Source: Oscarella lobularis
Taxonomy: Eukaryota
Reading direction: 5' to 3'
Length of the DNA: 64,000 nucleotides
NCBI RefSeq assembly: GCF_947507565.1
Contig: NC_089176.1
Coordinates: 4,019,882 to 4,083,881 of the forward strand
Position numbers and translations under genes: made by a program. The notes under the pieces were generated by a model. That model saw only the letters and a program-made list of their open reading frames with translations. It ran no database searches and had not been told where the DNA came from. Of the stretch, positions 18,539 to 20,095 are shown piece by piece; position 1 is the stretch's first letter, and each line of letters opens with the position of its first letter.

Positions 18539-19139
18539 AGTAGATGCTTGGGTCATTTGTCTGAGAATTAGAGAAAGAAATAGATCAATAAATTAACACC
18601 ACTAGCAACAGTTGTTGTACTGTAACCTGATTAGAATTAATTAGTTTAGCATAAAAAGAAACAATTTGCACGAACCTTCGATCTTTCGACTTGTGCAATG
18701 ATTTCGCTGCATAGGACGATCTTTTTCTGCCTGGAAATGTGCATCGTCGTCTTCCGAATCGACGTTCTTCCTTCGTTCACTTCGAAATCGTCTCGAATCG
18801 CAAACGCGAGCTTCTGTCTCCTTTTTCTGCACATGATCAGGTCCTTTTACGTCTGGTAAGTGCCTCTTTCTTCGCAGTTTCTTCTCATTTCTTCGCGTGG
18901 CGACGTCGCGGACATCTTTGATCGACGTGCGCTACGAATTCGTCGCCGCGTGTTTGATTTCCTTTCTCTTCTTCCTGTTTCTGACTCGTCGGAGCCGTTC
19001 TCTTGTTGTTCGAGCTTCGCGAAGACCACGAGGTTCTTCTCCGGCCGCCATCTTGAAGTTAGCGCGTTTATTCTCGTGCGCTGCTAATCTTATGCAATCA
19101 ATAGTCAAACCGGTTTGAAAACCGGTTTACGAACTCGCA

Positions 19140-19215
19140 CCTATTGGGTGGAACCAATGAGAGCGCTTGGTGAGCCCCACGTGACCCCGGCGGACCAATG
19201 AGCGTGCTGGGCGGG
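19140..19215 (+). promoter_or_regulatory. Two CCAAT boxes ('gaaccaatgagagcg', 'ggaccaatgagcgtg') followed by a GC box 'gggcgggg'.
   Basis: The motifs are read directly from the sequence. They sit at the 5' edge of a GC-rich island. Confidence 0.35.
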
Positions 19216-19259
19216 GCTACGCTGTTCAAAAGCGAAGCGCACACCGATCTTCCTTCAGT

Positions 19260-20095
19260 TGCGGCTGAGGGTGGGTGCGTCGCGGTTCGCCGCGTCTCAT
19301 CCTTGAGAGGACTGGCTCGGGAGATTTGGCAGAAGGCAAGGAAGGATAGTTGGAACTCAGCGTGGCCCACGGTTAATTCCGTGCCGGAGCCTGTAGGCAG
19401 GGCGATGGGGGGCTTCGGCCTCGGTTTACGCACTGGGCAGACGGATCGTTCGAGGTCTTATTGTCGTCAACAAGCACGAACCGCGCTAGGCTGAGTGGTT
19501 ACGGCTTGGAGGGGGTGTTCAACTATGGTCTGGTTGCCGGCACTTTTCTCACCCGAACGACGCGATTAGACCGACGATGATCCAGCCCAGGAGCCTTCGA
19601 TTCCTCCATTGCACTGTCTTCATTGTCGACTCCTACAAACAGCGGTCAGCCTCTCTCCATTCCACAAGGCCCGGTTCTTCTCAGGAAGACATACCGAAGG
19701 CTTTGGTACCAGCGCACCGGGGTTTCGGTATTAGGGGCCGATCCTCATCCAGGTGGGTACTGAATGGAATGGCCGAGGACCCGCAACTCGCCCGACACTT
19801 TTTGGAAGGGGGTCTTCGCTTTGCGAGACTCACCTGGGCTACGACGCGTCCAAACCTCCCCGTGGTGTAGCCTGGGTAACGCGAATATGGACGCAATTGA
19901 AAAAGGTACGTACAGAGATGAATTTTCAGCGTCTCACTTTATTTTTTTTTTAGAAACGATCGCGGCATCCGGAAGTTGAAATCGCGCAGCGACGAAAGTC
20001 CACGGAAAACAACTAGAAGACTATCGTACTGCTTGTAATCGTCTACTTGTACGTTTCAGTTTTCTAATGAAATAAAGAGATAGGTGTATTCGTTG
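19260..20095 (+). ncRNA. Putative spliced, GC-rich transcript with no long ORF (a lncRNA candidate). It has one short intron at about 19908-19952 ('gtacgt...ttttttttttag') and a downstream AATAAA at 20073.
   Basis: A GC-rich 800-bp block in an otherwise AT-rich locus. Overlapping short ORFs appear on both strands with no recognisable domain. A canonical donor, polypyrimidine tract and AG are present. The rest is inference. Confidence 0.25.

Follow-up and report, generated by a model that had tools for sequence, protein, structure and literature searches.

A GC-rich island beside PARP4 as a candidate multi-copy non-coding RNA gene with a putative minimal HDV-like ribozyme at the 3' edge of its structured RNA

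Minimal HDV-like ribozymes, reportedly the subject of a 2014 study by Riccitelli, have to our knowledge been given a proposed role only in phages so far, where they trim tRNAs, and the animal HDV-like ribozymes that we know of lie mainly at retrotransposon 5' ends and in one intron. The theta ribozymes, which are P4-less and HDV-like, are found exactly at the 3' end of an upstream phage tRNA (Kienbeck 2024; PMC10879173). The known P4-less ribozymes are those of phage genomes and tRNA processing, and they are reported to be almost absent from the eukaryotic genomes searched (PMC10879173). Eukaryotic HDV-like ribozymes are known mostly from non-LTR retrotransposons (PMC3185411, PMC3414825).

Here we describe a GC-rich island in a 64,000-nt stretch of Oscarella lobularis DNA (hereafter the window). 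In our reading, to which we give a probability of about 0.6, the island is a small gene for a non-coding RNA of lineage-restricted Pol II type whose 3' end would be made by self-cleavage. Like the theta ribozymes of gut phages, its putative ribozyme is a nested double pseudoknot without P4, of about 55-60 nt, with the first nucleotide of J4/2 as the catalytic C. Also as in the phages, the cut would fall precisely where a structured RNA upstream has its 3' end, the ribozyme standing in for a protein 3'-end processing enzyme. Unlike theta ribozymes, it lies in an animal nuclear genome, with a Pol II non-coding RNA of about 580 nt upstream and a spliceosomal intron and poly(A) signal downstream; a tRNA or tmRNA, looked for upstream of the ribozyme by analogy with theta, was not found. 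With the ribozymes of non-LTR retrotransposons (R2, RTE, L1Tc) the locus shares the ribozyme family, an animal genome, multiple copies and a co-transcribed upstream sequence. However, those ribozymes set the 5' end of an element whose conserved, coding part follows. Here it is the sequence before the ribozyme that is conserved; what comes after it is short, does not code and is not conserved, and no reverse transcriptase is near.

Other likenesses are found among Pol II non-coding RNAs. The TER1 RNA of fission yeast and other fungi, whose 3' end is formed by spliceosomal cleavage, has a U-rich Sm-type site near its mature 3' end, followed by a discarded 5' splice site, intron, exon and poly(A) signal, an arrangement that recurs here, but in our locus a ribozyme is interposed, the intron is ordinary-looking, no telomere template is present and the gene is multi-copy and in an animal. 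A ribozyme is said to be able to replace the TER1 intron experimentally. MALAT1 and NEAT1 are likewise Pol II non-coding RNAs that escape the poly(A) pathway through an RNA structure embedded downstream, at whose 5' edge cleavage is directed; there, RNase P cuts in trans at a tRNA-like element instead of the RNA cutting itself, and a triple helix protects the 3' end in place of a cyclic phosphate. Sm-class snRNA genes resemble the island in that they too are Pol II genes dispersed in multiple copies, and in that their structured RNAs are non-polyadenylated, carry a U-rich site between stems and have a terminal hairpin. The present family differs from them in having neither an snRNA-type promoter nor a 3' box, in being far longer, in giving no Rfam snRNA match and in fitting the Sm consensus only approximately.

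The main features of the locus are as follows:
18886-19941, unstranded: tract identical between two haplotypes (contigs ptg000371l and atg000591l)
19080-19216, plus strand: conserved Pol II-type promoter (exact motif positions; paralog alignments including a 9-sequence alignment)
19255-19260, plus strand: Initiator-like TCAGTT with A at 19257, candidate transcription start, invariant in all copies
19257-19835, plus strand: structured non-coding RNA, about 580-610 nt, making up most of exon 1 (fold, covariation)
19797-19807, plus strand: possible Sm-protein binding site ACUUUUUGGAA (AAAUUUUUGGAA in L009 and L011)
19808-19834, plus strand: 3'-terminal hairpin (helix 26, 11 pairs, 2 of them compensatory)
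19836-19894, plus strand: putative minimal (P4-less) HDV-like self-cleaving ribozyme, 59 nt (Rfam, descriptor, covariation)
19906-19953, plus strand: spliceosomal-type intron, 48 nt, with 5' splice site G/GUACGUA, branch point CUCAC (A19936), T10 and AG
19954-20095, plus strand: short, poorly conserved exon 2, with ACGAAAGTCCACGG at 19992 and AATAAA at 20071-20076
20315-20671, minus strand: end of the PARP4 C-terminal (MVP-interaction) coding region, given for context

The features named in the original prediction are all present in the sequence, with coordinates off by 2-7 bases. GC content is 0.53-0.61 across 19050-19950 against 0.39-0.50 in most adjacent intervals; the jump, which had been called unusual for the locus, is there, but it is modest in size, other nearby 300-nt intervals reaching 0.54-0.55. 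The convergent PARP4 3' end that had been proposed next to the island was also found: minus-strand coding sequence (20671-20321, stop at 20315-20317) was placed by tblastx against a syntenic locus, L003, whose ORF is annotated PF26156 PARP4_MVP-ID, and the Pfam domains VIT, PARP_reg and BRCT lie further along. The AATAAA is about 240 nt from the PARP4 stop, and the position of that stop leaves no room for downstream coding exons in the window copy.

We compared copies of the island within the assembly. A unit of about 860 bp, with limits at 19090-19953 set by blastn between copies, is repeated at at least seven other loci at 77-92% identity. HMMER searching with a spurious 98-aa ORF of the island matched 13 related 'ORFs'; all the matches that we looked up sit on separate contigs of this assembly, each with its own neighbour genes. 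The ORF clusters are spread over about 30 contigs, implying a copy number of roughly 15-30. Promoter motifs, block and splice signals were compared between the window copy and eight sequences from these seven other loci, and their conservation there is, by alignment, beyond chance. Outside the assembly, protein, metagenome, IMG/VR, GTDB and phage searches returned no member of the family. More specifically, pattern scans matched neither of two invariant motifs in JGI metagenome contigs, nor the first of them in IMG/VR and GTDB genomes, nor the ribozyme core in IMG/VR, and blastn of the block against phage records gave no match. Exact look-ups of the spurious ORFs recovered solely the assembly's own contigs, and none from contigs of sequencing-run or transcriptome assemblies. 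The island is one copy of a previously undescribed multi-copy family, probably of lineage-restricted non-coding RNA genes.

A coding reading was rejected. The copies are separated by many frameshifting 1-nt indels, which makes the block non-coding; the 98-aa ORF has no protein relatives besides paralogous ORFs among 1.84 billion representatives; and, as originally described, the island holds only short overlapping ORFs, for which Pfam gave no match.

The first exon appears to encode a large structured RNA. Its folding z-score is -2.2 on the plus strand against -0.2 on the minus strand. RNAalifold on six copies, scored on the same sequences from which the structure was derived, predicts 216 pairs with compensatory changes in 30. 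For the 194 pairs within exon 1, 96.9% of cells are paired. The search for covariation that had been advised revealed a covarying long-range fold: double changes occur in 29 of these 194 pairs, against 1-3 when partners are slid and in 0 of 500 shuffles. Substitutions private to one copy fall in paired columns 49 times; the pair is kept in 30, and 17 of those are private compensatory doubles. We conclude from these alignments that the block is non-coding and carries a covarying structure maintained across copies. Internal T5 and T4 runs argue against transcription by Pol III.

Near its 3' end this structure leaves a U-rich stretch (19797-19807), possibly an Sm site, with a covarying stem (19774-19790) before it and the terminal hairpin after it. 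Within it TTTTTGGAA is identical in eight of nine aligned sequences and shifted by one base in L011. Against the Sm consensus RAU3-6GR, A(C/A)UUUUUGGAA is only a partial match in five of seven loci, with C for the first U. The terminal hairpin ends 1 nt ahead of the predicted cleavage site in all copies.

Directly downstream lies the putative ribozyme, for which the fold model gives the following elements:
19835/19836, plus strand: predicted cleavage site, U19835/G19836
19836-42/19867-73, plus strand: P1, 7 bp, opening with a G.U pair (G19836.U19873)
19846-52/19888-94, plus strand: P2
19854-56/19864-66, plus strand: P3, 3 bp
C19858 and C19859 with G19875 and G19874, plus strand: P1.1, 2 bp
Between the strands of P3, plus strand: L3, UCCCCGU
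19882, plus strand: catalytic C, inside GCGAA, at the start of J4/2

At gathering thresholds Rfam finds nothing in the whole window; at E<=10, the only matches in the block are of HDV type, with noise elsewhere. The ribozyme scores 27.9 bits with RF00094 (E=0.14 in a 1.6-kb scan, 5.8 in a 64-kb scan) and 21.5 bits with RF02682. The paralog L009 is matched independently by RF00094 (25 bits), RF02682 (24 bits, E=0.044) and drz-agam-1. These values stay below the gathering scores (27.9 vs 50 for RF00094; 21.5-24 vs 44 for RF02682), largely because the 15-30-nt P4, absent from minimal variants by definition, is missing. A custom descriptor, composed after the candidate had been seen, has the ribozyme as its sole match in the window, both strands searched, and random sequence yields about 0.1-0.2 matches per Mb. 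Folding the ribozyme alone by MFE gives a z of about 0, as expected for a pseudoknotted fold.

The copies vary as the fold expects. Across seven of them, all 133 cells of the 19 ribozyme pairs are standard, whereas sliding the partner by 1-3 columns leaves 17-42% paired. P1 pair 2-38 changes from G-C to A-U and the opening G1.U becomes G-C in L009, while P2 pair 18-54 is A-U in three copies and G-C in four; P3 and P1.1 are invariant. This covariation amounts to two single events, and the P2 split coincides with the subfamily split. C75, A77, A78, U20, C21, C22 and G25 are invariant in nine sequences, and position 76 is G or U among copies, matching the family consensus. The remaining variable positions fall in J1/2, J1.1/4 and the P4-replacing linker. 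The ribozyme is the slowest-evolving segment of the unit, with 5 private changes in 59 columns against 48 in 160 in the promoter. The alignment establishes a ribozyme-type fold with intact catalytic positions; we infer from the fold model that self-cleavage would occur at U19835/G19836.

The motif could instead be a non-cleaving look-alike, the family being a duplicated one whose transcripts are ordinary spliced non-coding RNAs. Its sub-threshold Rfam scores, a P4 replaced by a single nucleotide and the small number of covariation events would fit this idea. We regard it as quite unlikely: every fold-defining position is present and invariant and variation is confined to where the fold tolerates it, the descriptor would match by chance in about 1-2 of 10,000 cases per kb, and P4-less HDV-like variants are active in other systems (PMC10879173).

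The dispersal of the family bears on its main rival explanation, namely that the unit (0.86-1.2 kb) is a non-autonomous mobile element, or the regulatory or leader part of one, with its own promoter and HDV-like ribozyme, and that the structure was selected on master copies (for example through reverse transcriptase recognition). We consider this rather unlikely, although several observations are as it would predict. The unit is dispersed and multi-copy, with diverged subfamilies and unrelated neighbour genes, and its edges are fairly consistent in most pairwise comparisons (left near 19089-19092, right near 19947-19963). A subfamily with a 222-nt insertion inside a helix has itself multiplied, and spread after such a possibly damaging insertion is more typical of mobile or duplication-prone sequence. 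Moreover, eukaryotic HDV-like ribozymes come mostly from retrotransposons, as cited above.

Features of the edges and of the conserved part nevertheless speak against mobility. Inspection of the edges at eight loci by eye revealed neither target-site duplications nor a poly(A) tail, and likewise no terminal repeats, whether inverted or long. Within 5 kb, no locus carries an ORF or Pfam domain of a reverse transcriptase or transposase. The edges are also ragged, as L011 and the window copy have extra common sequence on both sides of the unit and the YY1-like motif is kept past the edge. Known retroelement ribozymes occupy the element's 5' end; in the present unit, the conserved RNA precedes the cut and conservation is lowest beyond it. 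Retroposition would leave the promoter uncopied, as it lies 5' of the likely start. Finally, single copies have acquired private compensatory changes. A larger transposon carrying the unit was also rejected: flanks are unrelated between loci, the exceptions being the window copy with L011 and an unrelated repeat in L009 and L012.

Haplotype and synteny comparisons fall on both sides of this question. The two haplotypes show no differences in the 1056 nt of 18886-19941, vs about 10 expected from the flanks (17800-18538 and 19942-21200), which differ by about 0.95% in SNPs or indels; 18538-18885 holds 8 SNPs and 6 indels. This zero diversity in the window copy counts against a mobile element. 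In favour of one, a second copy present in two haplotypes (L013/L014) differs by 6 SNPs over 854 nt, which is not below the level of its right flank, so constraint is not visible in every copy. Neighbouring SMARCAL1 genes led us to loci L002 and L003, at 46-47% protein identity. The conservation in related genomes that the original prediction proposed to look for was not seen: L003 keeps the order PARP4 / HMG-box / SMARCAL1 and has no block, and neither L002 nor L003 has an HDV match. The empty syntenic site in this distant relative is again what mobility would predict.

We next consider the upstream part of the unit, where the following motifs, read from the sequence and the paralog alignments, make up the promoter and its surroundings:
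19044-19055, plus strand: YY1-like motif GCCGCCATCTTG (AAGATGGCGG on the minus strand), at the far-upstream limit of the unit
19080-88, plus strand: T(T/G)ATGCAAT, bZIP/C-EBP-ATF-like
19108-15 and 19120-27, plus strand: two AACCGGTT palindromes
19143, plus strand: inverted CCAAT (ATTGG)
19154 and 19195, plus strand: two CCAAT boxes
19178, plus strand: E-box CACGTG
19209-16, plus strand: GC box GGGCGGGG

The two CCAAT boxes predicted earlier were recovered as CCAATGAG, and the Sp1-like GC box at 19209. The upstream half of the promoter is missing from L009, where conservation starts at about 19221, which would place the start within 19225-19260. From typical promoter geometry, a start at A19257 would give positions of -103 and -62 for the CCAAT boxes, -79 for the E-box and -48 for the GC box. 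The motif at 19044-19055, which we take to be YY1-like from general knowledge of the factor consensus, is retained in the window copy, L011, L010 and L007 and degenerate in L008, the surrounding spacer having diverged; its minus-strand reading suggests a possible divergent start.

At the other end of the unit, the short intron that had been reported is present, but at 19906-19953 rather than 19908-19952. Its 5' splice site reads AAAAAG|GTACGTAC, with GT at 19906, and its T10-AG ends at 19953. AAAAGGTACGTA is invariant in nine sequences, and a CTNAY-like branch box, T-rich tract and AG are kept in all copies while the rest of the intron varies. As judged from the aligned copies, promoter and splice signals are conserved across the family. 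Exon 2 is alignable in L011 only, to about 20072 and at 77% identity; other copies have A-rich or AATAAA sequence 110-130 nt past the AG and are otherwise unalignable. The predicted AATAAA exists, at 20071 and not at 20073. Ribozyme and intron are about 12 nt apart.

These signals raise the possibility that the functional product is a spliced polyadenylated lncRNA (exon 1 plus exon 2), the ribozyme acting not as a 3'-end maker but as a built-in off-switch or dosage control by which some of the transcripts are destroyed, as with intronic or UTR ribozymes. Conservation is as strict in the splice signals as in the ribozyme, several copies have a poly(A) signal further on, and according to RNAalifold the -2/-1 nucleotides can pair with the P1.1 guanines, lengthening P1 into a possible inhibitory alternative fold. 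We find this very unlikely, given that exon 2 is essentially unconserved, that homology stops at the AG with nothing functional-looking 3' of the cut, and that the placing of the terminal hairpin exactly 1 nt before the cleavage site in every copy is as expected for 3'-end definition. Because the ribozyme lies between the structured RNA and the intron, a spliced transcript is unlikely to be the main product. The strong conservation of a full intron counts against our own reading if the ribozyme alone makes the 3' end.

We then asked whether the block could belong, in divergent form, to an established RNA class (telomerase RNA, RNase P/MRP RNA, snRNA, 7SK or SRP RNA), which we hold to be extremely improbable. 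In its favour, vertebrate telomerase RNA genes share a promoter with CCAAT and Sp1 sites; a GC-rich, structured RNA of about 600 nt would fit; and the order of a U-rich Sm-like site close to the 3' end and then a 5' splice site recalls fission-yeast TER1. In addition, the closest named SMARCAL1 relative is an ascidian, and telomerase RNA has yet to be identified in at least one animal group, the tunicates (PMC8704543).

Against this, the Rfam scan that had been called for left only HDV-type ribozymes at E<=10, in two copies. Telomerase RNA, one of the candidates put forward, was dropped: exon 1 has no TTAGGG-complementary stretch of at least 6 nt and no plausible 1.5-repeat template, although TTAGGG may not be the repeat of this species; its short periodic stretches are not conserved template candidates; Rfam gives no telomerase RNA match at E<=10; and the copies, on about 30 contigs, are not low-copy. 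A family of 15-30 members diverged by up to 20% is also unlike a single-copy essential RNA. RNase P/MRP RNA fared no better, with no Rfam match even at E<=10 in two copies; the CR-I-like string cited for it does exist, at 19992 instead of about 19985, but in the unconserved exon 2. An Sm-class snRNA gene with a PSE/DSE promoter and 3' box was rejected as well: the promoter is of CCAAT, E-box and GC-box type and the ribozyme and intron occupy the place where a 3' box would be; the PSE of this lineage may differ. Thus the core of the original prediction (Pol II promoter, non-coding structured RNA, short intron, poly(A) signal) is backed by conservation, indels and covariation, whereas the RNA classes that it named are not.

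Returning to a gene whose RNA is released by self-cleavage, we propose the following sequence of events. Transcription would start at about 19225-19260 from a compact mRNA-type Pol II promoter with CCAAT boxes, E-box, GC box, AACCGGTT and bZIP-like sites. The first 580-610 nt would fold into a large, selectively maintained structure ending in a U-rich (Sm-like) single strand and the terminal hairpin. As Pol II continues, the 59-nt P4-less HDV-like ribozyme would fold and cut at its own 5' edge, U19835/G19836, freeing a capped structured RNA with a 2',3'-cyclic phosphate and no poly(A) tail. The 5' splice site, 48-nt intron, exon 2 and AATAAA would then be a disposable tail of the unit, which would support productive elongation and Pol II termination or provide a spliced polyadenylated fate for uncut transcripts. 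Transcription itself, the start site, the division of labour between ribozyme and intron, and Sm binding are all inferred from sequence, and a role as a nuclear RNP scaffold is our guess. More tentatively still, and with considerable doubt, the family may represent a new class of cellular RNA: multi-gene, highly structured, capped Pol II RNAs of about 580 nt that may assemble with Sm proteins and whose 3' end a minimal HDV-like ribozyme would set, with an intron and poly(A) tail cassette in support.

The RNA matches no known family, and its sequences, structure model and catalytic mutant are defined for direct tests. With ribozyme and spliceosomal intron within about 12 nt of each other, the locus also offers a system for competition between self-cleavage and splicing. 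If our reading is true, this would be the first cellular non-coding RNA of eukaryotes whose 3' ends are naturally defined by a ribozyme, P4-less HDV-like ribozymes would have their first cellular role outside phages, and the ribozyme cassettes in expression vectors would have a natural counterpart; self-cleavage would then be a general means by which cells produce Pol II RNAs that are not polyadenylated.

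The window sequence is part of the hifiasm contig ptg000371l (108 kb) of ENA assembly ERZ18545485 and contains animal genes, for SMARCAL1 (nearest named relative in the ascidian Clavelina lepadiformis, ~48% identity), an HMG-box protein, galactosyltransferases and PARP4; other contigs of this assembly carry Ig/EGF, otopetrin and kinase genes. The GC content of the block (~19090-19953) peaks at 0.61 compared to ~0.39-0.50 in its surroundings. As originally predicted, PARP4 is convergent with the block, its MVP-interaction domain being coded on the minus strand (20671-20321) and its stop lying at 20315. 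All motifs described in that prediction are present at positions off by 2-7 bases, namely the CCAAT motif CCAATGAG at 19154 and 19195, the GC box GGGCGGGG at 19209 and the AATAAA at 20071. We additionally found an inverted CCAAT (19143), an E-box (19178), two AACCGGTT palindromes (19108 and 19120) and a bZIP-like TTATGCAAT (19080). The lack of a long ORF likewise holds: ORFs in the block are all short and overlapping, and none has a Pfam match.

Several other features of the window were observed. Related ORFs in which a GIY-YIG-like domain at the N-terminus is joined to several CCHC zinc knuckles form a tandem cluster at 35-4819 (for example 2054-2602 and 3959-4819), within which repeat families D5, D8, D11, D12, D14, D18 and D20 fall. 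Two galactosyltransferase (PF01762) genes, both intronless and encoding 402 and 408 aa, stand in tandem at 12744-15282 with ~72-80% DNA identity. Actin-like peptide segments lie inside or beside the PARP4 locus both here (23462-23782, minus strand) and in a distant relative (L003, 5044-5376), and may represent an actin-related gene, nested or adjacent, whose synteny is conserved. Recent segmental duplications (91-99% identity) occupy 50827-63885; a dephospho-CoA-kinase-like ORF is present in them two or three times (54077-54913, 59425-60003 and, as a fragment, near 62005), adjoined by a large 940-aa ORF at 55831-58653. Intergenic stretches of this genome abound in (TTTA)n / (TAAA)n microsatellites (for example 7444-7516, 14025-14073 and 20679-20735).

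Spurious ORFs inside the block have been called by the gene caller behind protein collections. Using the 98-aa ORF (19198-19491) as query against 1.84 billion representatives, HMMER returned 13 matches covering shifting sub-segments, a pattern that we read as the signature of conserved non-coding DNA. Each match looked up lies on its own contig of ERZ18545485 beside unrelated genes (L007-L014). Clusters of block ORFs extend over ~30 contigs, primary and alternate haplotigs both counted, and we estimate the family at 15-30 loci. According to blastn, the copies, which like all our comparative evidence are paralogs of one genome, share a common unit equivalent to window 19090-19953 at 77-92% identity. 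One copy, L011, additionally shares window 18900-19090 and exon 2 as far as ~20072; flanks are otherwise unrelated to each other. The protein-space search of the 1.84 billion representatives found no relative outside ERZ18545485, scanning JGI metagenomes, IMG/VR and GTDB genomes likewise gave no match to the family, and blastn against phage records gave none to the block. The block is also absent from the syntenic site in the distant relative keeping the PARP4 / HMG-box / SMARCAL1 order.

A dispersed, multi-copy family is what a mobile element would produce, and this is the main rival explanation for the unit. In L011, a 222-nt insertion at 5147-5368 (~ window 19506) falls within RNA helix 15; it starts with GT, ends with AG, has the 8-nt direct repeat GCACGACT on both sides and resembles a small transposon or an introner-like element. 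Because ORFs running into it make up an 8-member cluster spread over ~10 contigs, the insertion-bearing version has itself multiplied, which again favors a mobile element. Conversely, transposon hallmarks are absent at the copy edges, where no terminal repeats, target-site duplications or poly(A) tails were seen, and retroposition would leave the promoter behind. No reverse transcriptase or transposase was seen near the copies.

Conservation extends upstream of the unit, where four or five copies retain a YY1-like GCCGCCATCTTG ~35 nt before the 19090 edge. Opposite the RNA strand, AAGATGGCGG(A)GAAGAAC (window 19044-19075, minus strand) is kept in four copies, which suggests that the block promoter may be bidirectional. 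The apparent ATG-led ORF there is not conserved, being broken by a 4-nt indel between the window copy and L011, and any divergent transcript is therefore probably non-coding. A second repeat of ~0.5-1 kb (81-88% identity) lies just upstream of the RNA-gene copies in L009 (4760-6135) and L012 (3262-4693); it occurs twice in L009, where it stands in place of the promoter's upstream half beside a (CAGA)n microsatellite.

The block is non-coding and structured. Copies are separated by many 1-nt indels, and folding is better than that of shuffles on the plus strand (z=-2.2) and no better on the minus strand (z=-0.2). RNAalifold predicted 216 pairs from six copies, 30 of them with compensatory changes. 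In this model, scored on the very sequences that yielded it, 96.9% of cells in the 194 exon-1 pairs are standard pairs, and changes on both sides occur in 29 pairs compared to 1-3 with partners slid by 1-3 columns, a covariation reached in 0 of 500 shuffles. Several helices have 3-6 covarying pairs, such as the hairpin at alignment columns 255-293. Among 49 substitutions private to a single copy in paired columns, 30 keep pairing, 17 of these being private double changes; such private compensation in individual copies argues against a mobile element.

At E<=10, only HDV-type ribozymes in Rfam match the block with a fold-consistent alignment (19834-19895, plus strand; RF00094 27.9 bits and RF02682 21.5 bits for the window copy), and paralog L009 independently matches the same families. 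Since these scores fall short of the gathering threshold and a blind whole-window scan gives E=5.8, the Rfam match alone is only suggestive. Reading the site by hand, we found each defining HDV-like feature:

Features of the predicted HDV-like ribozyme, read by hand
P1, plus strand: 7 bp, opening with G.U
P2, plus strand: 7 bp
P3, plus strand: 3 bp
L3 UCCCCGU and P1.1, plus strand: two Cs of L3 paired to the GG that follows P1
19882, plus strand: predicted catalytic C, in GCGAA
P4, plus strand: a single nucleotide in its place

A feature descriptor, composed once the site was already known, matches only this site when both window strands are scanned, and ~0.1-0.2 sites/Mb in composition-matched random sequence. 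Across seven copies, 133 of 133 ribozyme pair cells are standard, with one compensatory change each in P1 and P2; the remaining variation is confined to J1/2, J1.1/4, the linker and position 76, and no other part of the unit evolves as slowly as the ribozyme. 'Minimal' HDV-like ribozymes, which lack P4, are an established class whose theta subgroup directly adjoins phage tRNAs at their 3' ends (PMC10879173). We identify a predicted minimal HDV-like ribozyme adjoining the structured RNA on its 3' side, resembling theta ribozymes in its position right at the 3' end of an upstream RNA, which in phages is a tRNA. Ribozymes in animal genomes are usually part of retroelements, again in favor of a mobile element, against which stands the conserved RNA upstream of the predicted cut.

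In every copy, a covarying hairpin closes the RNA 1 nt before the predicted cut and is preceded by single-stranded A(C/A)UUUUUGGAA, which resembles an Sm site. An invariant AAAAG|GTACGTA lies 11-13 nt 3' of the ribozyme, followed by a CTNAY branch box, a T-tract and AG; as these signals are kept among copies, conservation supports the short intron proposed originally, at 19906-19953. Alignable homology mostly ends at the intron AG; beyond it, all that recurs is A-rich or AATAAA sequence 110-130 nt on. Exon 2 is not conserved and contains the string earlier likened to a CR-I box. RNase P/MRP RNA, one of two identities formerly considered, is rejected because its Rfam models do not match at E<=10 and the suspected motif lies in this unconserved sequence; telomerase RNA, the other, is rejected because the gene is multi-copy and offers no template of 6 nt or more for TTAGGG repeats.

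Comparison with the alternate haplotype (L005), present in the same assembly, showed ~1% difference in the flanking genes and 0 differences over the 1056 nt of 18886-19941, where ~10 were expected; the block is under strong constraint in the window copy. Haplotype differences are concentrated in the adjacent 18538-18885, between the HMG-box stop and the invariant tract, with 8 SNPs and indels of 10, 56, 3, 16 and 10 nt; this hotspot has patchy homology to L011 at window 18704-18794 and may belong to the HMG-box 3' UTR or to a divergent transcript. In a second copy with two haplotypes (L013/L014), diversity is not below that of its flank, which favors a mobile element. These haplotypes are unalignable left of ~3245, indicating a structural variant upstream of the RNA gene, and a SNP in L013 destroys the first CCAAT box (CAAAT).

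Weighing these sequence comparisons, we conclude that the block is most probably a Pol II gene, small but complete, whose structured non-coding RNA belongs to an unclassified family restricted to this lineage. Its mature 3' end most likely comes from co-transcriptional self-cleavage: the ribozyme would cleave itself during transcription to generate this end, and the intron and poly(A) cassette would be a discarded tail or an alternative fate for transcripts escaping cleavage.
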